In this document: piece by piece, positions 2,792 through 37,745 of the stretch | How the letters are laid out: each line of letters opens with the position of its first letter | How positions within the stretch are numbered: the first letter of the stretch is position 1 | Origin: a virus | Lineage: Duplodnaviria; Heunggongvirae; Uroviricota; Caudoviricetes | IMG/VR virus record: IMGVR_UViG_2541047733_000004 | DNA length: 46,330 nt | Direction: 5' to 3' (one strand) | Notes under the pieces: generated by a model | Seen by the model: the letters and a program-made list of their open reading frames with translations, nothing else | Told to the model about the DNA's origin: nothing | The model's database searches: none | Program-made: the position numbers and the translations under genes

Positions 2792-2997
2792 GTGTTAATC
2801 CTCAAAACTTTATGCCCGGGCGCAAAAGTACGTGTTTTGTCTTTGCTTATTCGCCACCCGTCTTTACGGGCCTCTTTTGCACAACCAGACCATGACGTAC
2901 CGATATACTCACCGAAGTCTGGCACTGGATATACACCTTCCGTACACTGGCGACAATCACAATAGAGATGCATGGTGTAACTTGCGGCAATAGCCAT
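2788..2997 (-). CDS. Hypothetical small Cys-rich protein
   Basis: ORF 2788..3039; likely start at ATG 2997, arranged TGA-T-ATG with the stop of the upstream gene; CDCRQC motif. Confidence 0.4.
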   Translation of the reverse strand: MAIAASYTMHLYCDCRQCTEGVYPVPDFGEYIGTSWSGCAKEARKDGWRISKDKTRTFAPGHKVLRINT

Positions 2998-2998
2998 A

Positions 2999-3607
2999 TC
3001 ACTCTCTTTTTCCCTGAAGCATGGCAGCGTGGCAGGCATCCTCTACGCCCTTAACTGCATCTGCGCAGTAGTTATAGCGATTGCATTCCACTAACTTCTG
3101 CCTGAGATTTTCAATTGCTTGCGCGACATCAGCCTGTATTACAGGAACTGGCGGAACGGCTGTCTGCTGCTCTCGAACGTCATTAGTCGCTATCGGTTCT
3201 GCTGCCAACTGACTGGCATATTTGTTAATGGTAACGATAAGCTCTTGCTCAGCCTCATCCAGACAATCACCGATACCTCGCCTGTCGCCGTCAAAATCAT
3301 CGAAATCAGCACGAACTCTGGCAAATTTCAGGATTGCGGACAACACCTCACCAGGAATTACCGGAGAGTTGGTTGACGTTTCCGAAATTTCCCGAAAATT
3401 ATTGGTTGACGAATTCGCGTTTTCCCGAAAGTTTCCGGCATGAAGCATAGCCGCGCGGCAGGCGTTCCAGCCTCTCACCTCTGCAATAGCGGCAACAGCA
3501 TCGACCGCGTACATGCTAAGAGGGTTAGGCATTGGTTTTTCTTCAGGTACTACTGGCACTGGCTTGGCATATATAGCGGCTGAACATACCAACCCTTTGA
3601 TAACCAA
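2999..3607 (-). CDS. Hypothetical protein, 202 aa
   Basis: ORF on the early-left strand; start uncertain because it overlaps the upstream gene. Confidence 0.45.
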   Translation of the reverse strand: MVIKGLVCSAAIYAKPVPVVPEEKPMPNPLSMYAVDAVAAIAEVRGWNACRAAMLHAGNFRENANSSTNNFREISETSTNSPVIPGEVLSAILKFARVRADFDDFDGDRRGIGDCLDEAEQELIVTINKYASQLAAEPIATNDVREQQTAVPPVPVIQADVAQAIENLRQKLVECNRYNYCADAVKGVEDACHAAMLQGKRE

Positions 3608-8521: not shown

Positions 8522-9113
8522 TAACCGGAGTGATGTCGCGTTCCGGCTGACGTTCTGCAGTGTATGCGGTATTTTCGACAATGCGCTCGGCTTCATCCTT
8601 GTCATAGATACCAGCAAATCCGAAGGCGAGACGGGCACACTGAATCATGGCTTTATGCCGTAACATCCGTTTGGGATGCGACTGCCACGGCCCCGTGATT
8701 TCTCTGCCTTCGCGGGTTTTGAATGGTTCGCGGCGGCATTCATCCATCCACTCGGTAACGCAGATCGGATGATTGCGGTCTTTGCGGTAAATCCGGCATG
8801 TACATGATTCATTGTCCTGCTCAAAGTCCATACCATCAAACTGCTGGTTTTCATTGATGATGCGGGACCAGCCATCAACGCCCACCACCGGAACAATGCC
8901 GTTCTGCTTATCAGGGAAGGCGTAAATTTCTTTCGTCCACGGATTAAGGCCGTACTGGTTGGCGACGATCAACAATGCGATGAACTGCGCATCGCTGGCA
9001 TCACCTTTAAATGCCGTCTGGCGAAGAGTGGTGATCAGTTCCTGTGGGTCGACAGAATCCATGCCGACACGTTCAGCCAGCTTCCCTGCCAGCGTTGCGA
9101 GTGCTGTACTCAT
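8522..9113 (-). pseudogene. bet: bet (Red beta), 5' fragment (N-terminal about 197 aa)
   Basis: MSTALATLAGKLAERVGMDSVDPQELITTLRQTAFKG... matches lambda Bet up to ...ERDITPV, then enters the IS. Confidence 0.9.
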
Positions 9114-9118
9114 CCGTT

Positions 9119-9415
9119 TTATACCTCTGAATCAATATCAGCCTGATGGTGAGCAATGGTTTCAACTATGTACCGGATGTGTTCTGCCATGCGCTCCTGA
9201 AACTCAACATCGTCATCAAACGCACGGGTAATGGCTTTTTTGCTGGCCCCGTGGCGTTGTAAATGATCGATGCATAGCGATTCAAACAGGTGCTGGGGCA
9301 GGCCTTTTTCCATGTCGTCTGCCAGTTCTGCCTCTTTCTCTTCACGGGCGATCTGCTGGTAGTGACGCGCCCAGCTCTGAGCCTCAAGACGATCCTGAAT
9401 GTAATAAGCGTTCAT
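9119..9415 (-). CDS. gam: Gam, host RecBCD inhibitor (98-aa short form)
   Basis: [38 protein letters not shown]... matches lambda GamS. Confidence 0.9.
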
Positions 9416-9490
9416 GGCTGAACTCCTGAAAATGGCTGTGAAAATATCGCCCGCGAAATGCCAGGCTGATTAGGAAAACAGGAAAGGGGG

Positions 9491-9634
9491 TTAGTGAATG
9501 CTTTTGCTTGATCTCAGTTTCAGTATTAATATCCATTTTTTATAAGCGTCGACGGCCTCACGAAACATCTTTTCATCGCCAATAAAAGTGGCGATAGTGA
9601 ATTTAGTCTGGATAGCCATAATTGTTTGATCCAT
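9491..9634 (-). CDS. kil: Kil, host killing / FtsZ inhibitor
   Basis: 47-aa reading frame [47 protein letters not shown], as in lambda Kil; lies inside the longer track ORF 9491..9760. Confidence 0.8.
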
Positions 9635-9767
9635 TTTTTGGGACTCCTGGCTGATTAAGTATGTCGATAAGGCGTTTCCATCCGTCACGTAATTTACGGG
9701 TGATTCGTTCAAGTAAAGATTCGGAAGGGCAGCCAGCAACAGGCCACCCTGCAATGGCATATTGCAT
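9603..9767 (-). CDS. cIII: CIII, FtsH inhibitor that stabilises CII
   Basis: 54-aa frame MQYAIAGWPVAGCPSESLLERITRKLRDGWKRLIDILNQPG..., read by hand from the reverse strand; overlaps kil as in lambda. Confidence 0.85.
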   Translation of the reverse strand: MQYAIAGWPVAGCPSESLLERITRKLRDGWKRLIDILNQPGVPKNGSNNYGYPD

Positions 9768-9839
9768 GGTGTGCTCCTTATTTATACATAACGAAAAACG
9801 CCTCGAGTGAAGCGTAATTGGTATGCGGTAACGCCGCGC

Positions 9840-10208
9840 TCAGGCGGCCTTGATAGTCATATCATCTGAATCAAATATTCCTGATGTATCGATATCGGTA
9901 ATTCTTATTCCTTCACTACCATCCATTGGAGGCCATCCTTCCTGACCATTTCCATCATTCCAGTCGAACTCACACACAACACCATATGCATTTAAGTCGC
10001 TTGAAATTGCTATAAGCAGAGCATGTTGCGCCAGCATGATTAATACAGCATTTAATACAGAGCCGTGTTTATTGAGTCGGTATTCAGAGTCTGACCAGAA
10101 ATTATTAATCTGGTGAAGTTTTTCCTCTGTCATTACGTCATGGTCAATTTCAATTTCTATTGATGCTTTCCAGTCGTAATCAATGATGTATTTTTTGATG
10201 TTTGACAT
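9840..10208 (-). CDS. ea10: Ea10-like protein
   Basis: 122 aa, matches lambda Ea10 as recalled (MSNIKKYIIDYDWKASIEIEIDHDVMTEEK...). Confidence 0.85.
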   Translation of the reverse strand: MSNIKKYIIDYDWKASIEIEIDHDVMTEEKLHQINNFWSDSEYRLNKHGSVLNAVLIMLAQHALLIAISSDLNAYGVVCEFDWNDGNGQEGWPPMDGSEGIRITDIDTSGIFDSDDMTIKAA

Positions 10209-10390
10209 CTATTCATATCCTCATAGATAAAAAATCGCCCTCACACTGGAGGGCAAAGAAGATTTCCAATAATCAGAACAAGTCGGCTCCTGTTTAGTTA
10301 CGAGCGACATTGCTCCGTGTATTCACTCGTTGGAATGAATACACAGTGCAGTGTTTATTCTGTTATTTATGCCAAAAATAAAGGCCACTA

Positions 10391-10591
10391 TCAGGCAGCT
10401 TTGTTGTTCTGTTTACCAAGTTCTCTGGCAATCATTGCCGTCGTTCGTATTGCCCATTTATCGACATATTTCCCATCTTCCATTACAGGAAACATTTCTT
10501 CAGGCTTAACCATGCATTCCGATTGCAGCTTGCATCCATTGCATCGTTTGAATTGTCCACACCATTGATTTGTATCAATAGTCGTAGTCAT
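10391..10591 (-). CDS. ral: Ral, restriction alleviation protein
   Basis: 66 aa, MTTTIDTNQWCGQFKRCNGCKLQSECMVKPEEMF..., near-identical to lambda Ral. Confidence 0.9.
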   Translation of the reverse strand: MTTTIDTNQWCGQFKRCNGCKLQSECMVKPEEMFPVMEDGKYVDKWAIRTTAMIARELGKQNNKAA

Positions 10592-10650
10592 ACGGATAGT
10601 CCTGGTATTGTTCCATCACATCTTGAGGATGCTCTTCGAACTCTTCAAAT
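10575..10650 (-). CDS. Possible small acidic peptide (lambda orf28-like)
   Basis: Hand-translated MEEEFEEFEEHPQDVMEQYQDYPYDYDY upstream of ral; below the track length cutoff. Confidence 0.3.
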
Positions 10651-10804
10651 TCTTCTTCCATATATCACCTTAAATAGTGGATTGCGGTAGTAAAGATTGT
10701 GCCTGTCTTTTAACCACATCAGGCTCGGTGGTTCTCGTGTACCCCTACAACGAGAAATCGGATAAACTCTATTCACCCCTACAGAGAGCAAAAGAGAAAC
10801 GCCG

Positions 10805-11386
10805 ATGAACAACTCATGGTGGCAGGAACTAATGCATTTTTTCCTGCAAGGAATGACACTTAAACAGTTGATTCATATGCTAATCATCCTGATCATATTG
10901 ATTATTGTTATGCCGGTAAGCGTAAAAGAATGGATAAACCTGCATAGTCCAGAAATCCTTCCTCATTACTGGATGTATTACATCCTGTTGTTTTGCGTTA
11001 GCTATGTGCTTAACGGCGTTGTTAATTCCGCTTATCACGCTGTGACTGAAAGAATTGAGGTATTCGCTGCTCAGAAGCGCAAATCTAAAGAAGAAAAATA
11101 TGTGCAAGATTTGTTTGATTCGTTAACTCTTGGAGAAAGAGCGTATTTGGCATTCGCTGTAGCCGCTAATAACCAGCTACAAACGGAAAAGGGCGCTCAT
11201 GAATCAATTTCATTGCTCAAAAAAGGACTCCTCGTTCGAAGGCCTCCTGCTGTTGGATATCCTGATACCGACCGTTTCGTTATCCCTGAAAGCTATAGAC
11301 ATGAGTGCTACATTAGGTTTGCCGGGAAGGCAGACAGCCTTATGGATGAACTTATCGCTCAGGATAAGCATGGCAAAAACAAGTAA
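10805..11386 (+). CDS. sieB: SieB, superinfection exclusion protein B
   Basis: 193 aa, N-terminus MNNSWWQELMHFFLQGMTLKQLIHMLIILIILIIVMPV with a TM segment as in lambda SieB; opposite strand to the pL operon as in lambda. Confidence 0.8.
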   Translation: MNNSWWQELMHFFLQGMTLKQLIHMLIILIILIIVMPVSVKEWINLHSPEILPHYWMYYILLFCVSYVLNGVVNSAYHAVTERIEVFAAQKRKSKEEKYVQDLFDSLTLGERAYLAFAVAANNQLQTEKGAHESISLLKKGLLVRRPPAVGYPDTDRFVIPESYRHECYIRFAGKADSLMDELIAQDKHGKNK

Positions 11387-11402
11387 TTAGCAAATGAATT
11401 TA

Positions 11403-11675
11403 TCATCTCGCCGTCAGTTGTTTTGATTTCCGGTAGCCTGCCGCGTAAAGAGCTACGTTCGGAAGACAAGTTGAACCTTCATATTTTCTGGTCAACGTTG
11501 TCAGAGTTATCACTTCTGCTCTCATTGCTGGTTTGAGCTTGCATTGCAAGACCACTCGTGAAGGGGTTGGCCTGTGTAGCTTGTCGGAGCTGATCGCCTC
11601 CTGACTTTGCAGATTTGCGCGACGAGCTCTACGGCGAGAAGCTGCGGTGCCTTTAAATTCTGTTTTTCTGGACAT
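11403..11675 (-). CDS. N: N-type transcription antiterminator (P22 gp24-like)
   Basis: C-terminus ...VALYAAGYRKSKQLTAR resembles P22 gene 24 protein; arginine-rich N-terminal motif (GTAASRRRARRA); GGGAGG RBS before ATG at 11675; first gene downstream of nutL. Confidence 0.75.
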   Translation of the reverse strand: MSRKTEFKGTAASRRRARRANLQSQEAISSDKLHRPTPSRVVLQCKLKPAMRAEVITLTTLTRKYEGSTCLPNVALYAAGYRKSKQLTAR

Positions 11676-11773
11676 GGATTCCTCCCGAATAAACTTTGGC
11701 GATGCAATCTCGAAGCTCCTCCTGAGACGGTTGCTTCGGCATTGCATCCCACAGCTTATGTGGTTGGGTGATC

Positions 11774-11819
11774 TGGCTTTTCAGCCACGTAGTCGAGAGT
11801 CGACGTTGTTTAAAGAGCC
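11774..11819 (-). promoter_or_regulatory. nutL (boxA GCTCTTTAAACAA, boxB hairpin TGGCTGAAAAGCCA)
   Basis: boxA-like sequence and a GAAAA-loop boxB hairpin read on the minus strand; same architecture and same CTACG spacer end as the nutR candidate. Confidence 0.6.
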
Positions 11820-12078
11820 TGCCAGTCTGTTCCATTTGGCTTCCAGCGTCCTGCTGACGGTTAAATAGTACGATATGTACTTTACAAGATCAATACAATT
11901 TGTTGTAAGTTGGCGTGGTTTTTTATAACGCTTTGTATTTAATAGTGTTGTTTTTTAGCGTGGATGTATTGCCTCGGCGATGTAAGGAGAGATCAGAATT
12001 GCGTGGTTTAGTGGGTTGCATCTATTTATTTTTCAATAAATATAATTGGTTATGTGTTTTTAGGTGGGCAAACGTGAG

Positions 12079-12108
12079 GCAAAGAAAACCCGGCGCTGAG
12101 GCCGGGTT
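12079..12108 (-). terminator. Rho-independent terminator ending the cI-cargo transcript
   Basis: Hairpin AACCCGGC-GCTGAG-GCCGGGTT followed on the minus strand by a U-run; directly after the stop of the 250-aa gene. Confidence 0.6.
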
Positions 12109-12111
12109 GTA

Positions 12112-12864
12112 TTATGCTGCAAGTCTCTTAACCCAAGTCTCTCTTTTGGAGAATGGTAGAACTTGGCTTGATTCATGGAAGAGTAAGGAGAGTTGTTGCA
12201 TTTGATCACCAATTGCTTCGCTGTCTATAACAACAAATCTGTTGTTATACTCCTCACTTGAAGCTTTAAGATCAATTAGTTTCCCAAGCAATGAGTAAGC
12301 ACTATTCCAGCTTCCTCCGTGTTTCACGCTTGATGTAAAAACGTATTTAGGTATGTCGGTTTTTATTGTTACAGGGACGGTAATTTGATGTCCACTCAAG
12401 CCATATACGTTTTCACGAAGAGAAAGTGCGTCTCTAAGCTCTGTGTGATATAGATAATCAATAACCATACTTTCAAACTTTTCAGCTTGAACTGGCTGAT
12501 ACCAGTCTAACGACAAAGTTGATGCGAGTATACCAGCTCTAATTATGTTCGATGTAATCGCACCGACATCCTTTTCTGTTGCCCAAGCAATGATTTCTCC
12601 TCGAGCATTGAGTTCTGCGCCTTCTTTAAGCAGTAATTGTCGTATCTCATCAAGTCGTTTTTTGGTAAGCGAGATCCCTCTTGCCTCCATATTCATTAAG
12701 GCATCGCATCTGTCACTAACTAAATACCTACCATTGACTTCACGGATAAAGGCACCGACATGCTCTCCATCATCACAGTAAGTGAATGGACTGATAATTC
12801 TCAAGGTCTTGCCTATTGGATGGCATTCGAAACCTAGTTGTGAGATCACTGTTGAGCACATCAT
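12112..12864 (-). CDS. Unknown protein, 250 aa; second gene of the rex-position cassette
   Basis: ORF whose ATG overlaps the upstream stop (ATGA); visibly AT-rich codon usage; no recognisable catalytic motif. Confidence 0.6.
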   Translation of the reverse strand: MMCSTVISQLGFECHPIGKTLRIISPFTYCDDGEHVGAFIREVNGRYLVSDRCDALMNMEARGISLTKKRLDEIRQLLLKEGAELNARGEIIAWATEKDVGAITSNIIRAGILASTLSLDWYQPVQAEKFESMVIDYLYHTELRDALSLRENVYGLSGHQITVPVTIKTDIPKYVFTSSVKHGGSWNSAYSLLGKLIDLKASSEEYNNRFVVIDSEAIGDQMQQLSLLFHESSQVLPFSKRETWVKRLAA

Positions 12865-13418
12865 ATTCCAAACCCCATTTGCCCCGACTCATCTTCAAGC
12901 GGTAAAGGTATTCTCCCAGAGTAAGTTATGTTCAGATGTTTACAGAAGTAATTCCAATACCCTACCAGGTCATCTGGGTTTATGTCATCTTCGATTGGAA
13001 ACGCTATTCTATCACTATAGTATCCAGCTTCTTCATAGTATACATGGTAGTGAGCACCGTAAATGATATCTTGGTACTTCGGATGATCGACCTTGTAACT
13101 ATTCGTGTGTTTGTCAAAGTGATAGGTATCTACCGCGAAAACCCTCTTGTTATGATAGAAAGCAATAATATTTATTTTAGGGTAAGAAATCGGGTCATCA
13201 GGTTCTGAATCCTGATCTGGTTTCCATTTCAGTTCAAACTTTAGCCCTTGTATAGGTATACAATCCTCATCCAAGGGGATGATATGGGCTTGTAGCCACA
13301 TATCAGAGCGACTTGGTTTCTGTTTCCATTTAACGCCAGAAAAGTTAACTATTTTTTTACAATAAAGTACTTTATCAACTTCTACTTGGCTTGGCTGATA
13401 ATCATCTATTTTTGCCAA
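12861..13418 (-). CDS. Unknown protein, 185 aa; first gene of the rex-position cassette
   Basis: ORF 39 nt downstream of the cI stop, same strand; apparent TTG start preceded by a GGGCGG-like RBS; AT-rich; acidic, Tyr/His-rich. Confidence 0.55.
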   Translation of the reverse strand: MAKIDDYQPSQVEVDKVLYCKKIVNFSGVKWKQKPSRSDMWLQAHIIPLDEDCIPIQGLKFELKWKPDQDSEPDDPISYPKINIIAFYHNKRVFAVDTYHFDKHTNSYKVDHPKYQDIIYGAHYHVYYEEAGYYSDRIAFPIEDDINPDDLVGYWNYFCKHLNITYSGRIPLPLEDESGQMGFGI

Positions 13419-13457
13419 TGTTTACCGCCCTGTAAATTGTAGATAAAAGTGGTTTCA

Positions 13458-14117
13458 TCACCCAAACGTCTCTTCAGGCCATTGGCTGGCGATAACTTTC
13501 CCCACAACGGAACAACTCTCATTGCATGGGATCATTGGGTATTGTGGGTTTAGTGGCTGTAGAAACACCTGACCGCTATCCCTGATCAGTTTCTTGAAGG
13601 TAAATTCATCACCACCAAGTCTGGCTATGCAGAAATCGCCGGGCTCAACAGCTTGCTCAGGGTCAACCAGAATTAACATCCCGTCAGGAAAGCTGGGTTT
13701 GGAACCTGTTGGTGCGGTCATTGAGTTACCTTCAACCTCAAGCCAGAATGCAGAGTCACTGGCTTTTTTGGTTGTGCTTACCAATCTCTCCGCATCGCCT
13801 TTGGTAAAGGTTCTGAGTTCTGGAGAGAACATCCCAGCCTGAACATGAGAAAAAACAGGGTACTCATATTGTTTTTTAACTGGGGCCGATGAGTATTCGC
13901 CAACAGGTGAAAATGTCCCGTCGTGGTTGAATGATATGTTATCAATACCAAGGTATTTAAACACCACACCAATATCACTAAGAGATGGATGACGAGATCC
14001 GCGCAACCAGTGTCCAATCCCACCCTGCGTCATACCTAGCTCTTCGGCTAACTTCTCTTGAGTTATGCCGAGCTCTTTCATTCTGGATCTAGCCAGTTCA
14101 TACCATTTCATTTTCAT
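13458..14117 (-). CDS. cI: CI-type prophage repressor (lambda-like C-terminal domain, different N-terminal HTH)
   Basis: C-terminal 130 aa near-identical to lambda CI ([22 protein letters not shown]...[12 protein letters not shown]...[10 protein letters not shown]); N-terminal HTH domain differs; likely start MKMKW at 14117. Confidence 0.9.
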
Positions 14118-14228
14118 GTCCTTATTATTACGCTCTGTACTGGAACCATCCATGCACAATGTGTATTTTTACTTGTATTCGCAAAGTACATATTGTATTT
14201 TTTTATTCGTGTTTACTATGGAGGGCAT
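14118..14228. promoter_or_regulatory. Right operator region (OR, divergent pRM and pR)
   Basis: Divergent cI/cro intergenic region with imperfect dyads (e.g. TGTATTCGCAAAGTACA); individual operators not resolved. Confidence 0.6.
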
Positions 14229-14444
14229 ATGAGCAACCTACGAAAATATCGAGAGTCACTGAATATCTCTCAAACAACACTTGCTAAGGCAGTTGGATGC
14301 ACACAGGGAGCTATCGGACATTGGGAATCTGGTCGTCGCTTCCCAGACCTTAAAACATGCCGTGCTCTTGTTGCGTGCCTAAACAAGTTAGGCGCAAAAG
14401 TCAGTCTTGATGACGTGTTCCCGCCGGAACACAAAGCCGCTTAA
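14229..14444 (+). CDS. cro: Cro-like HTH repressor
   Basis: 71 aa, MSNLRKYRESLNISQTTLAKAVGCTQGAIGHWESG..., HTH_XRE motif; first gene rightward of OR. Confidence 0.8.
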   Translation: MSNLRKYRESLNISQTTLAKAVGCTQGAIGHWESGRRFPDLKTCRALVACLNKLGAKVSLDDVFPPEHKAA

Positions 14445-14454
14445 TAAGCGGATC

Positions 14455-14500
14455 CGCTCTTTGTAACAACGGACATTCGTCCTACGTCGCTGAAAAGCGA
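14455..14500 (+). promoter_or_regulatory. nutR (boxA CGCTCTTTGTAACAA, boxB hairpin TCGCTGAAAAGCGA)
   Basis: boxA consensus match and a GAAAA-loop hairpin immediately downstream of cro; paired with the nutL candidate. Confidence 0.65.
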
Positions 14501-14585
14501 GTTCCAAGATATCTGACCAACTAAGGCCATATGCGTTTCCACGCATACCTTTCAACTAACTATTCACTATTGGAAATCTTAAGAA

Positions 14586-14882
14586 ATGGAAAGAACAAGT
14601 TACAGCAAACTATCACAGCGTGACGTTGATCGCGCAGAAACAGATTTACTTATCAATCTGTCAGCTATTACCCAGCGCGGTCTGGCAAAGATGATTGGCT
14701 GTCATGAATCGAAGATAAGCAGAACGGACTGGAGATTTATTGCTTCGGTCTTGTGTGCTTTCGGAATGGCATCAGACATCAGTCCGATTAGCAGGGCTTT
14801 TAAGTATGCGCTTGATGGACTCACCAATAAAAAACGCCCGGCGGCAACCGAGCGTTCTGAACAAATCCAGATGGAATTCTGA
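14586..14882 (+). CDS. cII: CII transcriptional activator (hybrid, lambda-like C-terminus)
   Basis: 98 aa; C-terminus ...LTNKKRPAATERSEQIQMEF matches lambda CII; N-terminal HTH region differs. Confidence 0.85.
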   Translation: MERTSYSKLSQRDVDRAETDLLINLSAITQRGLAKMIGCHESKISRTDWRFIASVLCAFGMASDISPISRAFKYALDGLTNKKRPAATERSEQIQMEF

Positions 14883-14914
14883 GGTCATTACTGGATCAAT
14901 CCACAGGAGTCATT

Positions 14915-15814
14915 ATGACAAATACAGCAAAAATACTCAACTTCTGCAGAGGTAACTTTGCCAAACAGGAGCGTAATGTGGCAGATCTCGATGATGGTTA
15001 CGCCAGACTATCAAATATGCTGCTTGAGGCTTATTCAGGCGCAGATCTGACCAAGCGACAGTTTAAAGTGCTGCTTGCCATTCTGCGTAAAACCTATGGA
15101 TGGAATAAACCAATGGACAGAATCACCGATTCTCAACTTAGCGAGATTACAAAGTTACCCGTCAAACGGTGCAATGAAGCCAAGTTAGAACTCGTCAGAA
15201 TGAATATTATCAAGCAGCAAGGCGGCATGTTTGGACCAAATAAAAACATCTCAGAATGGTGTATCCCTCAAAACGAGGGAAAATCCCCTAAAACGAGGGA
15301 TAAAACATCCCTCAAATTGGGGGATTGCTATCCCTCAAAACAGGGGGACACAAAAGACACTATTACAAAAGAAAAAAGAAAAGATTATTCGTCAGAGAAT
15401 TCTGGCGAATCCTCTGACCAGCCAGAAAACGACCTTTCTGTGGTGAAACCGGATGCTGCAATTCAGAGCGGCAGCAAGTGGGGGACAGCAGAAGACCTGA
15501 CCGCCGCAGAATGGATGTTTGACATGGTGAAGACCATCGCGCCATCAGCCAGAAAACCGAATTTTGCAGGGTGGGCTAACGATATCCGCCTGATGCGTGA
15601 ACGTGACGGACGTAACCATCGCGACATGTGTGTACTGTTCCGCTGGGCATGCCAGGACAACTTCTGGTCCGGTAACGTGCTGAGCCCGGCCAAACTCCGC
15701 GACAAGTGGACCCAGCTCGAAATCAACCGTAACAAGCAACAGGCAGGTGTGACAGCCTGCAAACCAAAACTCGACCTGACAAACACTGACTGGATTTACG
15801 GGGTGGATTTATGA
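14915..15814 (+). CDS. O: Replication initiator O
   Basis: 299 aa, near-identical to lambda O (MTNTAKILNF...); contains the origin iterons. Confidence 0.95.
   Translation: MTNTAKILNFCRGNFAKQERNVADLDDGYARLSNMLLEAYSGADLTKRQFKVLLAILRKTYGWNKPMDRITDSQLSEITKLPVKRCNEAKLELVRMNIIKQQGGMFGPNKNISEWCIPQNEGKSPKTRDKTSLKLGDCYPSKQGDTKDTITKEKRKDYSSENSGESSDQPENDLSVVKPDAAIQSGSKWGTAEDLTAAEWMFDMVKTIAPSARKPNFAGWANDIRLMRERDGRNHRDMCVLFRWACQDNFWSGNVLSPAKLRDKWTQLEINRNKQQAGVTACKPKLDLTNTDWIYGVDL
15263..15430 (+). repeat. Lambda-type origin: four about 18-bp iterons plus adjacent AT-rich region, inside O
   Basis: ATCCCTCAAAACGAGGGA, ATCCCCTAAAACGAGGGA, ATCCCTCAAATTGGGGGA, ATCCCTCAAAACAGGGGGA, followed by an A-rich tract. 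Confidence 0.9.
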
Positions 15815-16512
15815 AAAACATCGCCGCACAGATGGTTAATTTTGACCGTGAGCAGATGCGTCGGATCGCCAACAACATGCCGGAACAGTACGACGAAAAG
15901 CCGCAGGTACAGCAGGTAGCGCAGATAATCAACGGTGTATTCAGCCAGTTACTGGCAACTTTCCCGGCGAGCCTGGCTAATCGTGACCAGAACGAACTGA
16001 ACGAAATCCGCCGCCAGTGGGTTCTGGCTTTCCGGGAAAACGGGATCACCACGATGGAACAGGTGAGCGCCGGAATGCGTGTTGCCCGTCGGCAGAATAG
16101 ACCATTTCTGCCATCACCCGGGCAGTTTGTTGCATGGTGCCGGGAAGAAGCATCCGTTACCGCCGGGCTGCCAAACGTCAGCGAGCTGGTTGATATGGTT
16201 TACGAGTATTGCCGGAAGCGTGGTCTGTATCCGGATGCAGAGTCTTATCCGTGGAAATCAAACGCGCACTACTGGCTGGTTACCAACCTGTATCAGAACA
16301 TGCGGGCCAATGCGTTGACTGACGCGGAATTACGGCGCAAGGCTGCCGATGAACTGTCCTGTATGACCGCGCGAATTAACCGTGGTGAGGCGATACCTGA
16401 ACCAGTAAAACAACTTCCTGTCATGGGCGGTAGACCTCTAAATCGTGCACAGGCTCTGGCGAAGATCGCAGAAATCAAAGCTAAGTTTGGGCTGAAAGGA
16501 GCAATTGTATGA
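15811..16512 (+). CDS. P: Replication protein P (DnaB helicase loader)
   Basis: 233 aa, near-identical to lambda P. Confidence 0.95.
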   Translation: MKNIAAQMVNFDREQMRRIANNMPEQYDEKPQVQQVAQIINGVFSQLLATFPASLANRDQNELNEIRRQWVLAFRENGITTMEQVSAGMRVARRQNRPFLPSPGQFVAWCREEASVTAGLPNVSELVDMVYEYCRKRGLYPDAESYPWKSNAHYWLVTNLYQNMRANALTDAELRRKAADELSCMTARINRGEAIPEPVKQLPVMGGRPLNRAQALAKIAEIKAKFGLKGAIV

Positions 16513-16799
16513 CGGGCAAAGAGGCAATTATTCATTACTTGGGGACTCATAAGAACTTCTGTGCGCAGGACGTTGCCGCGGTAACAGGTGCAACCGTAAC
16601 CAGCATAAATCAGGCTGCGGCTAAAATGCCGCGGGCAGGAATCCTGGTCGTTGATGGTAAGGTCTGGCGAACGGTGTATTATCGGTTCGCTACCAGAGAA
16701 GAATGGGAAGGAAAGGTGAGCACGAATTTGATTTTTAAGGAGTGTCGCCAGAGTGCCACGATGAAACGGATATTGGCGGTATATGGAGTTAAAAGATGA
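16509..16799 (+). CDS. ren: Ren
   Basis: 96 aa, matches lambda Ren (MTGKEAIIHYLGTHKNFCAQDVAAVTGATVTSINQAAAKM...). Confidence 0.9.
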   Translation: MTGKEAIIHYLGTHKNFCAQDVAAVTGATVTSINQAAAKMPRAGILVVDGKVWRTVYYRFATREEWEGKVSTNLIFKECRQSATMKRILAVYGVKR

Positions 16800-16872
16800 C
16801 CATCTACATCACTGAGCTAATAACAGGCCTGCAGGTAATCGCAGGCCTTTTTATTTGGGGGAGAGGGAAGTC

Positions 16873-17313
16873 ATGAAAAAACTAACCTTTGAAATTCGAT
16901 CTCCGGCACATCAGCAAAACGCTATTCACGCAGTACAGCAAATCCTTCCAGACCCAACCAAACCAATCGTAGTAACCATTCAGGAACGCAACCGCAGCTT
17001 AGACCAAAACAGGAAGCTATGGGCCTGCTTAGGTGACGTCTCTCGTCAGGTTGAATGGCATGGTCGCTGGCTGGATGCAGAAAGCTGGAAGTGTGTGTTT
17101 ACCGCAGCATTAAAGCAGCAGGATGTTGTTCCTAACCTTGCCGGGAATGGCTTTGTGGTAATAGGCCAGTCAACCAGCAGGATGCGTGTAAGCGAATTTG
17201 CGGAGCTATTAGAGCTTATACAGGCATTCGGTACAGAGCGTGGCGTTAAGTGGTCAGACGAAGCGCGACTGGCTCTCGAATGGAAAGCGCGATGGGGAGA
17301 TCGGGCTGCATGA
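16873..17313 (+). CDS. ninB: NinB (Orf recombination mediator)
   Basis: MKKLTFEIRSPAHQQNAIHAVQQ... matches lambda NinB; ATG at 16873 inside track ORF 16855..17313. Confidence 0.9.
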   Translation: MKKLTFEIRSPAHQQNAIHAVQQILPDPTKPIVVTIQERNRSLDQNRKLWACLGDVSRQVEWHGRWLDAESWKCVFTAALKQQDVVPNLAGNGFVVIGQSTSRMRVSEFAELLELIQAFGTERGVKWSDEARLALEWKARWGDRAA

Positions 17314-35191: not shown

Positions 35192-37745
35192 ACCGGTAGG
35201 CGATCTGGTCGTTGATTTAAGTCTGGATGCGGCCAGATTTGACGAGCAGATGGCCAGAGTCAGGCGTCATTTTTCCGGTACGGAAAGTGATGCGAAAAAA
35301 ACAGCGGCAGTCGTTGAACAGTCGCTGAGCCGACAGGCGCTGGCTGCACAGAAAGCGGGGATTTCCGTCGGGCAGTATAAAGCCGCCATGCGTATGCTGC
35401 CTGCACAGTTCACCGACGTGGCCACGCAGCTTGCAGGCGGGCAAAGCCCGTGGCTGATCCTGCTGCAACAGGGTGGTCAGGTTAAGGACTCCTTCGGCGG
35501 GATGATCCCCATGTTCCGGGGGCTTGCCGGTGCGATCACCCTGCCGATGGTCGGGGCCACCTCGCTGGCGGTGGCGACCGGTGCGCTGGCGTATGCCTGG
35601 TATCAGGGTAACTCAACCCTGTCCGATTTCAACAAAACGCTGGTCCTTTCCGGCAATCAGTCGGGTCTGACGGCAGATCGTATGCTGGTCCTGTCCAGAG
35701 CCGGGCAGGCGGCAGGGCTGACGTTTAACCAGACCAGCGAGTCACTCAGCGCACTGGTTAAGGCGGGAGTAAGCGGTGAGGCTCAGATTGCATCCATCAG
35801 CCAGAGTGTGGCGCGTTTCTCCTCTGCATCCGGCGTGGAGGTGGACAAGGTCGCTGAAGCCTTCGGGAAGCTGACCACTGACCCGACGTCGGGGCTGACG
35901 GCGATGGCGCGCCAGTTCCATAACGTAACGGCGGAGCAGATTGCGTATGTTGCTCAGTTGCAGCGTTCCGGCGATGAATCCGGGGCATTGCAGGCGGCGA
36001 ACGAGGCCGCAACGAAAGGGTTTGATGACCAGACCCGACGCCTGAAAGAGAACATGGGCACGCTGGAAACCTGGGCAGACAGGACAGCACGGGCATTCAA
36101 ATCCATGTGGGATGCGGTGCTGGATATTGGTCGTCCTGATACCGCTCAGGAGATGCTGATTAAGGCAGAGGCTGCGTTTAAGAAAGCGGACGACATCTGG
36201 AATCTGCGCAAGGATGATTATTTTGTTAACGATGAAGCGCGGGCGCGTTACTGGGATGATCGTGAAAAGGCCCGTCTTGCGCTTGAAGCCGCCCGAAAGA
36301 AGGCTGAACAGCAGAGTCAACAGGACAAAAATGCGCAGCAGCAGAGCGATACCGAAGCATCACGGCTGAAATATACCGAAGAGGCGCAGAAGGCTTACGA
36401 ACGGCTGCAGACACCGCTGGAGAAATATACCGCCCGTCAGGAAGAACTGAACAAGGCACTGAAAGACGGGAAAATCCTGCAGGCAGATTACAACACGCTG
36501 ATGGCGGCGGCGAAAAAGGATTATGAAGCGACGCTGAAAAAGCCGAAACAGTCCGGCGTGAAGGTGTCTGCGGGCGATCGTCAGGAAGACAGTGCTCATG
36601 CTGCCCTGCTGACGCTTCAGGCTGAACTCCGGACGCTGGAGAAGCATGCCGGAGCAAATGAGAAAATCAGCCAGCAGCGCCGGGATTTGTGGAAGGCGGA
36701 GAGTCAGTTCGCGGTACTGGAGGAGGCGGCGCAACGTCGCCAGCTGTCTGCACAGGAGAAATCCCTGCTGGCGCATAAAGATGAGACGCTGGAGTACAAA
36801 CGCCAGCTGGCTGCACTTGGCGACAAGGTTACGTATCAGGAGCGCCTGAACGCGCTGGCGCAGCAGGCGGATAAATTCGCACAGCAGCAACGGGCAAAAC
36901 GGGCCGCTATTGATGCGAAAAGCCGGGGGCTGACTGACCGGCAGGCAGAACGGGAAGCCACGGAACAGCGCCTGAAGGAACAGTATGGCGATAATCCTCT
37001 GGCGCTGAATAACGTCATGTCAGAGCAGAAAAAGACCTGGGCGGCTGAAGACCTGCTTCGCGGGAACTGGATGGCAGGCCTGAAGTCCGGCTGGAGTGAG
37101 TGGGAAGAGAGTGCCACGGACAGTATGTCGCAGGTTAAAAGTGCTGCCACGCAGACCTTTGATGGTATTGCGCAGAATATGGCGGCGATGCTGACCGGCA
37201 GTGAACAGAACTGGCGCAGCTTCACCCGTTCCGTGCTGTCCATGATGACAGAAATTCTGCTTAAGCAGGCAATGGTGGGGATTGTCGGGAGTATCGGCAG
37301 CGCTATTGGCGGGGCTGTTGGTGGCGGCGCATCCGCGTCAGGCGGTACAGCCATTCAGGCCGCTGCGGCGAAACTCCATTTTGCAACCGGAGGATTTACG
37401 GGAACCGGCGGCAAATATGAGCCAGCGGGGATTGTTCACCGTGGTGAATTTGTCTTCACGAAGGAGGCAACCAGCCGGATTGGCGTGGGAAATCTCTACC
37501 GGCTGATGCGCGGCTATGCCACCGGCGGTTATGTCGGTGGCACCGGAAGTCCGGCGCAAATGCGGCGTTCAGAGGGTATCAGGTTTGAGCAGAACAACAA
37601 CGTGGTGATTCAGAACGACGGTACGAATGGTCTGCCAGGTCCACAGATGATGAAGGCGGTGTATGACATGGCCCGCAAGGGTGCCCGTGATGAAATCCAG
37701 GCACAGATGCGCGATGGTGGTCTGTTCTCCGGAGGTGGACGATGA
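35184..37745 (+). CDS. H: Tape measure protein H
   Basis: 853 aa, the lambda gpH length; coiled-coil-rich with a Gly-rich C-terminal region. Confidence 0.95.
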   Translation: MAEPVGDLVVDLSLDAARFDEQMARVRRHFSGTESDAKKTAAVVEQSLSRQALAAQKAGISVGQYKAAMRMLPAQFTDVATQLAGGQSPWLILLQQGGQVKDSFGGMIPMFRGLAGAITLPMVGATSLAVATGALAYAWYQGNSTLSDFNKTLVLSGNQSGLTADRMLVLSRAGQAAGLTFNQTSESLSALVKAGVSGEAQIASISQSVARFSSASGVEVDKVAEAFGKLTTDPTSGLTAMARQFHNVTAEQIAYVAQLQRSGDESGALQAANEAATKGFDDQTRRLKENMGTLETWADRTARAFKSMWDAVLDIGRPDTAQEMLIKAEAAFKKADDIWNLRKDDYFVNDEARARYWDDREKARLALEAARKKAEQQSQQDKNAQQQSDTEASRLKYTEEAQKAYERLQTPLEKYTARQEELNKALKDGKILQADYNTLMAAAKKDYEATLKKPKQSGVKVSAGDRQEDSAHAALLTLQAELRTLEKHAGANEKISQQRRDLWKAESQFAVLEEAAQRRQLSAQEKSLLAHKDETLEYKRQLAALGDKVTYQERLNALAQQADKFAQQQRAKRAAIDAKSRGLTDRQAEREATEQRLKEQYGDNPLALNNVMSEQKKTWAAEDLLRGNWMAGLKSGWSEWEESATDSMSQVKSAATQTFDGIAQNMAAMLTGSEQNWRSFTRSVLSMMTEILLKQAMVGIVGSIGSAIGGAVGGGASASGGTAIQAAAAKLHFATGGFTGTGGKYEPAGIVHRGEFVFTKEATSRIGVGNLYRLMRGYATGGYVGGTGSPAQMRRSEGIRFEQNNNVVIQNDGTNGLPGPQMMKAVYDMARKGARDEIQAQMRDGGLFSGGGR

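Follow-up and report, generated by a model that had tools for sequence, protein, structure and literature searches.

A VT2-Sakai/Nil2-type immunity region probably joined to a lambda-type replication module in a lambdoid prophage, with module joints inside N, cI and cII

The virus record IMGVR_UViG_2541047733_000004 comprises 46,330 nt (the window, to whose full length all coordinates refer), and the region studied here, positions 11403 to 14882 (3,480 bp), holds the genes N, cI, cro and cII. All readings are computational and sequence-based. Very probably, the region is the part of a lambdoid prophage that governs early regulation and immunity, the prophage being of the type represented by ev207, PhiR57_1 and E. 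coli Nissle 'prophage 3' and having a VT2-Sakai / Nil2 / Stx2-phage-II immunity module joined rightward to a lambda-type replication module. The gene order, taken from the list of open reading frames (ORFs) and the sequence, was that of a standard lambdoid early region, and the products fell into the Pfam families N_peptide, DUF1828, DUF6978 (weak), HTH_3 with Peptidase_S24, HTH_3, Phage_CII and SieB. An original prediction made from the sequence alone had proposed novel helix-turn-helix (HTH) domains and a new immunity specificity for this DNA. As the CI, Cro, N and operators match those of known phages, the specificity is not new; the immunity type, the lambda-like CI C-terminal domain, the operators and the N gene are already known from public records and papers from about 2000 onward.

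A megablast search of 50,697 phage records found the whole 3,480 bp to be 100% identical in Escherichia phages ev207, ev017, PhiR57_1 and PhiR63_2. The N-OL and cI-cro-cII parts, which lie outside a two-gene cassette and make up 61% of the query, were 95-99% identical to many Shiga toxin (Stx) phages, including Nil2, 1717, 2851, YYZ-2008, Stx1 converting phage and Stx2 II. The whole stretch was present in 236 of 5,426 complete E. coli genomes at >80% coverage, and the genome matches listed, including Nissle 1917 and the type strain ATCC 11775, were 100% identical; this prophage type is common in E. coli. When aligned to VT2-Sakai and Nil2, the cI-OR-cro DNA was 99% identical, and a BLAST map gave 93% identity to VT2-Sakai over 11403-12109 and 96% over 13460-14922. 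A search of the literature on ev207/ev017 or the PhiR phages found nothing usable on immunity.

The CI protein was identical to Nil2 CI (AJ413274) at all 217 positions, and its N-terminal domain was 100% identical in 56 phage records, including AP000422 (VT2-Sakai). Cro was identical to Cro of VT2-Sakai and of Nil2 at 71 of 71 residues. The 17-bp VT2-Sakai operator sequences, which are themselves published as predictions (PMC10742460, Table S1), were mapped by script, and the operator mapping that the original prediction had proposed for OR and OL located all six of them, four exactly and two with one mismatch. The operators share the core TAC(A/G)-N3-TGTA, and the annotation of AP005153 places operators at matching positions, with a pR and a maintenance promoter for CI. 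The N-terminal domains thus match a well-known immunity type over their full length, a result that the original prediction had itself named as contrary to it. The HTH domains are not novel either: the nearest CI N-terminal domains outside the group, those of the repressors of Salmonella phages g341c, epsilon34 and L, were 52-55% identical, and CII matched Phage_CII over its full length (7e-34). A separate observation concerns the RefSeq record of VT2-Sakai, NC_000902, where a G-to-A change at the equivalent of window position 14027 turns a Gln codon of the HTH (MTQGG) into TAG; cI is annotated there as two pieces due to this TAG, and the CI N-terminal domain of the VT2-Sakai record AP000422 matches that of the window at 100%.

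Relative to lambda, CI consists of two dissimilar halves, as the original prediction had noticed. The N-terminal 83 aa form an HTH_3 domain (Pfam 1.9e-10, residues 11-58) that can barely be aligned with lambda CI, and the C-terminal portion is identical to it at 135 of 136 residues, which gives 71% over the whole protein. The C-terminal portion matched Peptidase_S24 (Pfam, 1.1e-28) and CI matched PDB entry 3bdn (2.6e-96); the segments VQAGMF, GNSMT and FKKLI are the same as in lambda, so that the Ala-Gly cleavage site and the Ser/Lys dyad are present. The likeness has been recognized before. The AP005153 record labels CI as 'similar to phage lambda CI', and the 'Clade I' of PMC8951638, the CI clade nearest lambda CI, includes this repressor. 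According to PMC10742460, Fattah et al. (2000) had already found the CI proteins of VT2-Sakai and lambda to be highly homologous at the C-terminus and little so at the N-terminus.

At the DNA level, positions 13457-13868 were 93.4% identical to lambda 37227-37638, and the differences comprised 26 synonymous changes and one non-synonymous change. The BLAST map and per-base mismatch lists both showed that the similarity to lambda ends abruptly at 13868/13869. This joint lies in the inter-domain linker, with the Ala-Gly cleavage site ∼8 codons further downstream, and the junction proposed for cI at a domain boundary is therefore borne out. The 26 synonymous differences indicate that the exchange is old and did not occur with lambda itself, and that the domain is under strong constraint. 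The lambda-like block of cI is common to every member of the VT2-Sakai/Nil2 immunity group. The g341c repressor, 70% identical to CI overall, was ∼52% identical in the N-terminal domain and ∼82% in the C-terminal domain, a comparison from which the lambda-type C-terminal domain reads as the widely shared, slowly evolving half of the protein.

The second gene for which a junction had been proposed, cII, also contains one. The CII protein matched Phage_CII over residues 1-92 (7e-34; 91-position profile) and PDB entry 1xwr (9e-10). Its last 20 aa, LTNKKRPAATERSEQIQMEF, were identical to lambda CII, as had been noted originally, and the remainder was ∼26% identical (18 of 68 aligned residues, counted by hand from the alignment). 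Compared with CII of VT2-Sakai and Nil2, only two amino acids differed besides the tail. In the per-base mismatch lists the window matched Nil2 up to 14817 and lambda from 14820, which places the joint at 14818-14820, a few bases beyond the 3' end of the antisense RNA gene oop. The last 55 nt, or last 17 codons, of lambda cII overlap oop, the last 17 CII residues are dispensable for CII activity and required for regulation by OOP, and lambda imm21 hybrids differ 'within cII left of oop' (PMC3349717). The last 20 codons are identical to lambda presumably because oop, which moves with the O-P module, has its 3' end and terminator in this DNA. In Salmonella phage g341c, yet another type of CII body precedes the same lambda-like tail. 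The part of the original prediction that placed a joint inside cII thus holds, and the part that took it for a protein-domain boundary altering specificity does not. The lambda tail of cII appears to be the footprint of the oop/replication module boundary rather than a specificity-altering domain swap, and the joint would fall where lambdoid immunity and replication modules classically meet. BLASTP of CII against P22 C1 gave no alignment, and no TTGC-N6-TTGC-like repeat was seen by eye at the start of cII.

The N protein was identical to VT2-Sakai N at 89 of 90 residues (98.9%) and also differed from Nil2 N by one residue. It had been described as P22-like, which is true of its family and of its C-terminus, where VALYAAGYRKSKQLTAR and the C-terminus of P22 gp24, VALYAAGHRKSKQITAR, share 15 of 17 residues; the best match is VT2-Sakai N, and gp24 is just 40% identical in the pairwise comparison. 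A multiple alignment gave 43% identity to gp24 and 56% to Min27 N. The arginine-rich motif GTAASRRRARRANLQ lies near the N-terminus, with SRRRARRA as residues 13-20. A search of PDB sequences with N gave no match. The annotation of Nil2 and VT2-Sakai takes a 114-aa ORF (11403-11747) as N; the 90-aa product was preferred on the basis of the Shine-Dalgarno sequence GGGAGGA before MSRK and of the Pfam alignment. The last ∼22 codons of N (11403 to ∼11470) were ∼95% identical to N of Min27 (933W-type) and ∼80% to P22 gene 24, both values being estimates by eye from the alignment. Beyond this block the genes diverge, and a third intragenic joint appears to lie at ∼11470. The BLAST map contained a P22 match (85%) over 10411-11466, which covers the sieB region and reaches into the 3' end of N. 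The superinfection-exclusion gene SieB itself (10805-11386, plus strand; Pfam 9e-22) adjoins N and is convergent with it; PADLOC returned only noise for SieB.

Two candidate nut sites had been proposed to share a boxB-like hairpin and a CTACG element consistent with one N specificity, and this held. The motif CTACGT[G/C]GCTGAAAAGC[C/G]A, with up to three mismatches allowed, occurred exactly twice in the 46 kb, against a chance expectation of 0.02. The copies, at 11774-11792 on the minus strand and 14482-14500 on the plus strand, lie on the expected strands in the pL-N and cro-cII gaps. Folded by itself, each boxB gives a stem of 5 bp and a loop of 4 nt (-7.1 and -6.5 kcal/mol). A single compensatory G-C/C-G pair distinguishes the two stems, and the spacer hairpins co-vary (GUCGA/UCGAC in nutL, GGAC/GUCC in nutR). 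The hairpins thus stand, while the 6-nt TGAAAA loop first described is better read as a GAAA tetraloop closed by a U-A pair. Phage 75/02 Stx, in which N is 84% identical and cI and cro are different, keeps the nut design: its nutL boxB is UGGCU-GCAA-AGCCA (phage stretch 4350-4400) and its nutR boxB (2975-3000) is identical to that of the window. The GCAA loop supports the reading as a GNRA tetraloop, and the retention of the design beside a different cI and cro argues that the nut sites travel with N and not with the repressor. An Rfam search at E<=1 over 10500-16000 gave only chance matches and no nut or oop family.

The positions of these and the neighboring features are collected in Table 1.

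Table 1. Predicted features of the immunity region and its flanks, and segments of similarity to lambda, by position in the window.
Feature	Position	Strand	Description
Lambda similarity, recombination genes to ral	8522-10784		98% to lambda (BLAST map of 6-20 kb)
Segment without lambda identity	10785-11986		
N antiterminator	11403-11675	-	90 aa; Pfam N_peptide 1.5e-32
nutL	11774-11818	-	boxA GCTCTTTAAACAA 11806-11818; spacer hairpin GTCGA-CTC-TCGAC 11792-11804; CTACG; boxB UGGCU-GAAA-AGCCA 11774-11787
Putative pL	11865-11893	-	TTGATC, 17 bp, TACTAT; by eye, P22 comparison, AP005153
OL1	11866-11882		exact match to VT2-Sakai operator
OL2	11891-11907		1 mismatch to VT2-Sakai operator
OL3	11924-11940		1 mismatch to VT2-Sakai operator
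Lambda similarity, t_imm region	11987-12108		89% to lambda
Predicted terminator ending cI operon	12087-12108	-	lambda-like, position of lambda t_imm; terminator scan
ORF250	12112-12864	-	DUF1828 protein; second cassette gene, position of rexB/rexA
ORF185	12861-13418	-	first cassette gene; TTG start; overlaps ORF250 by 4 nt
Lambda similarity, cI C-terminal domain	13457-13868		93.4% to lambda
cI	13458-14117	-	likely start ATG 14111, giving 217 aa as in Nil2; HTH_3 + S24 domains
Segment without lambda identity	13869-14819		
OR3	14126-14142		exact match to VT2-Sakai operator
OR2	14152-14168		exact match to VT2-Sakai operator
Putative pR	14173-14201		TTGTAT 14173-14178, 17 bp, TATTTT 14196-14201; by eye, pR annotated in AP005153
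OR1	14184-14200		exact match to VT2-Sakai operator
cro	14229-14444	+	71 aa; HTH_3 (Pfam 4.2e-12)
nutR	14456-14500	+	boxA CGCTCTTTGTAACAA; spacer hairpin GGAC-AUUC-GUCC; CTACG; boxB UCGCU-GAAA-AGCGA 14487-14500
cII	14586-14882	+	98 aa; codons 1-77 of Nil2/VT2-Sakai type; lambda-type DNA from 14820
Lambda similarity, cII tail, oop, O, P, ren	14820-17313		96% to lambda
oop antisense RNA gene (predicted)	14826-14940	-	transcript ∼14904 to 14826; promoter/terminator scan
oop terminator (tO) stem	14831-14858	-	followed by T-run; terminator scan
pO	14912-14940	-	TTGAGT, 17 bp, CATAAT; promoter scan
Lambda-type O, then P	14915-15814 (O)		right of cII; ORF list

The joints were placed with the BLAST map of 6-20 kb against lambda, VT2-Sakai, Nil2 and P22 and with the per-base mismatch lists. 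Those inside genes (N at ∼11470, cI at 13868/13869 and cII at 14818-14820) appear to be usual lambdoid module boundaries, and none of them would define a new specificity. On the left, the similarity to lambda ends at 10784, just before the sieB gene. At the putative pL the leader TCAGCAGGACGCTGG is conserved with P22 pL. The AP005153 promoter at the equivalent of pL (-10 and -35) overlaps operators and is labelled there 'putative maintenance promoter for CI'.

The account given originally, in which recent recombination within cI and cII at domain boundaries made a new immunity specificity in this phage, draws on real features: lambda identity breaks abruptly at 13868/13869 and 14818-14820, and little of the HTH parts of CI and CII can be aligned with lambda. 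We consider it extremely improbable. CI, Cro and the operators are identical or nearly so to those of long-deposited phages and are present in hundreds of genomes, the synonymous differences in the cI C-terminal domain point to an old exchange that was not with lambda, and the cII joint alters only the C-terminal tail and its overlap with oop, which is no immunity determinant, the last 17 residues being dispensable (PMC3349717). The mosaicism itself is real relative to lambda; that of cI is old and known from VT2-Sakai-type phages. It is also very unlikely that cI never recombined and that the pattern reflects vertical descent, with a constrained C-terminal domain and a fast-diverging DNA-binding domain. 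The slower C-terminal evolution seen against the g341c repressor would fit such a history, as would the fact that 26 of the 27 cI differences from lambda are synonymous. Yet at 13868/13869 it takes only a few bases for the DNA to pass from 93% identity with lambda to sequence that cannot be aligned, the identity drops a second time right after the cI stop codon, and the synonymous sites of the C-terminal part are far closer to lambda than any N-terminal sequence; a difference in rate gives no such step.

Several points weigh against the assignment of the region to a VT2-Sakai-type module with working regulatory sites as listed in Table 1. A strict sigma-70 consensus scan called neither pL nor pR. 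The operator centers are spaced by 32 and 26 bp at OR and by 25 and 33 bp at OL, unlike the 23-24 bp of lambda, and some of the sites may therefore be mis-assigned. Around OR2 and OR1, four substitutions distinguish this phage from VT2-Sakai and Nil2, three of them between the two operators in the -35/spacer of the putative pR (14180, 14182 and 14183) and one at 14212; they could change the strength of pR and leave the operators unaltered. The full-length nut RNAs have a minimum-free-energy fold in which boxA is paired with boxB, so that formation of boxB in vivo is an assumption and the function of the nut sites a prediction. Lastly, cross-immunity between VT2-Sakai and lambda has been reported (Fattah et al., 2000, as cited in PMC10742460). 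It bears on the possibility that the immunity overlaps functionally with that of lambda through shared contacts between recognition helix and operator, for which it also speaks that lambda CI gel-shifts all six VT2-Sakai operators (PMC10742460). The apparent Kd of lambda CI was 3.7-6.4 µM for the VT2-Sakai sites, however, against 0.2-3.1 µM for lambda sites, and was like that for the unrelated Stx2-I sites (3.7-7.7 µM; PMC10742460), so that the binding looks near non-specific. With operator cores of TAC(A/G)N3TGTA against TATCACCGC in lambda, and with CI N-terminal domains that barely align, such an overlap appears unlikely. The reading as a VT2-Sakai/Nil2-type immunity module with a lambda-type replication module is thus retained.

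If the region works as its homologs do, the HTH_3 domain of CI would bind six 17-bp operators, three each at OR and OL. The near-lambda C-terminal domain of CI would allow the protein to pair and to cleave itself upon SOS induction; the near-identity of this part to lambda suggests both cooperative operator binding and RecA-stimulated self-cleavage. Cro would act on the same operators as CI. The arginine-rich N-terminus of N is predicted to bind the boxB hairpins of nutL and nutR and, with host Nus factors on boxA, to let transcription from pL and pR read through terminators, and CII would activate the establishment promoters.

The group closest to this region consists of VT2-Sakai, Nil2, Stx1 converting phage, Stx2 II (AP005153/AP005154), 1717, 2851 and YYZ-2008, with which it shares identical CI and Cro proteins and an N that is one residue off. 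It also agrees with the VT2-Sakai/Nil2 group in the six operators, in nutL and nutR and in the body of cII, and the DNA is 93-97% identical over 11403-12109 and 13460-14922. It differs from the group between cI and N, where the cassette is of the orf22 type there and consists of ORF185 and the DUF1828 gene here. It differs from VT2-Sakai further in its right-hand part: in VT2-Sakai, the annotation likens O to HK022 O and P is DnaB-like, whereas the cII tail, oop and replication genes are here lambda-type. No stx was found in the region of this phage examined. With lambda the region shares the gene order, the CI C-terminal domain with its Ala-Gly site and S24 domain, the t_imm region (89%) and the cII tail, oop, O, P and ren (96%); the CI N-terminal domain, operators, Cro, N and nut, CII body and rexAB slot are unrelated or distant. 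The lambda imm21 and imm434 hybrids resemble it in that the immunity core is swapped between conserved flanks, and in imm21 the right crossover lies in cII left of oop (PMC3349717), the same place as the cII joint here. These are laboratory hybrids with 21 or 434 specificity, whereas the present arrangement is natural and of VT2-Sakai-type specificity. Likenesses to P22 gp24 and the N proteins of H-19B/933W comprise the Pfam N family, the C-terminal ∼20 aa, the N-terminal arginine-rich motif and the boxA-spacer-boxB order. The nutL of Min27 (933W-type) also has a dyad spacer that ends in CTACG before boxB, with a P22-type boxB, GCGCUGACAAAGCGC. The boxB of the window, U(G/C)GCU-GAAA-AGC(C/G)A, has a 4-nt GNRA loop, and that of P22 and Min27, GCGCU-GACAA-AGCGC, a 5-nt loop. 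Further along the window, the virion (head and tail) genes at 20000-44000 were 99.9% identical to those of PhiR57_1 and 99.6% to those of phage 21. The window as a whole appears to be a typical mosaic, in which the virion genes resemble phage 21, the recombination and replication genes resemble lambda and the immunity is of the VT2-Sakai type.

In E. coli Nissle 1917 this region lies in a defective prophage adjoining icd. For the 'phage repressor pr' gene EcN_1294, Bury et al. (2018; PMC5987069) used primers that map to 14783-14841 (quantitative PCR, qPCR) and 14540-14907 (cloning). From these positions, the cloned 'pr' fragment therefore comprises cII and the transcribed part of oop, without pO. 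The lac promoter, judged from the primer tails and the order of the pUC19 polylinker, presumably reads cII in the sense direction. The cloned 'pr' is reported to protect K-12, with 215- and 243-fold reductions in the plating of lambda and Stx phages (PMC5987069). With cII in sense orientation, these reductions would therefore belong to CII and not to a repressor. The Nissle 'pr' gene is a cII homolog rather than a repressor gene, which corrects the misnomer, and the lambda-type cII tail and oop of the prophage might contribute to the ∼200-fold drop in plating.

Two genes at 12112-13418 lie inside the interval of the original prediction and were left unmentioned there. They occupy the slot of rexAB, downstream of cI and upstream of the predicted terminator of the cI operon; this terminator belongs to a stretch (11987-12108) that is 89% identical to lambda 35709-35827 in the t_imm region. 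In phages that are otherwise homoimmune, this slot accounts for the 39% of the region that varies, and the cassette has a G+C content of 39.6%, against 50.4% for the window. ORF250 matched the PADLOC candidate PDC-M24B over its full length (4.7e-10), and ORF185 gave a weak match to PDC-M24A (4.8e-4 over ∼60 residues). Homologs with 47-84% identity were found across Enterobacterales and Aeromonas, and in Aeromonas caviae and Pectobacterium prophages the pair lies directly downstream of unrelated S24 repressors. An AF2 model of ORF250 had a pLDDT of 84.5. In its C-terminal half H159 and K173 are invariant, as are D31, D32, E34 and H35 in the N-terminal half, which probably corresponds to DUF1828, and a canonical D...(D/E)xK motif was not evident in the protein. 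A literature search on DUF1828, DUF6978 and PDC-M24 returned nothing relevant. The cassette is the sole part of the interval without a known function; tentatively, it could be an uncharacterised exclusion or abortive-infection system expressed in lysogens alongside the repressor.

As first stated, the finding adds nothing new, this immunity type having been known since about 2000. The region is of interest as a clean, base-resolved case of lambdoid module joints that lie within genes (N, cI and cII), of which the joint in cII would be accounted for by the overlapping oop RNA gene and not by protein domains. The pair of genes in the repressor operon, conserved and so far unstudied, is a further point of interest as a candidate defence system of the prophage.

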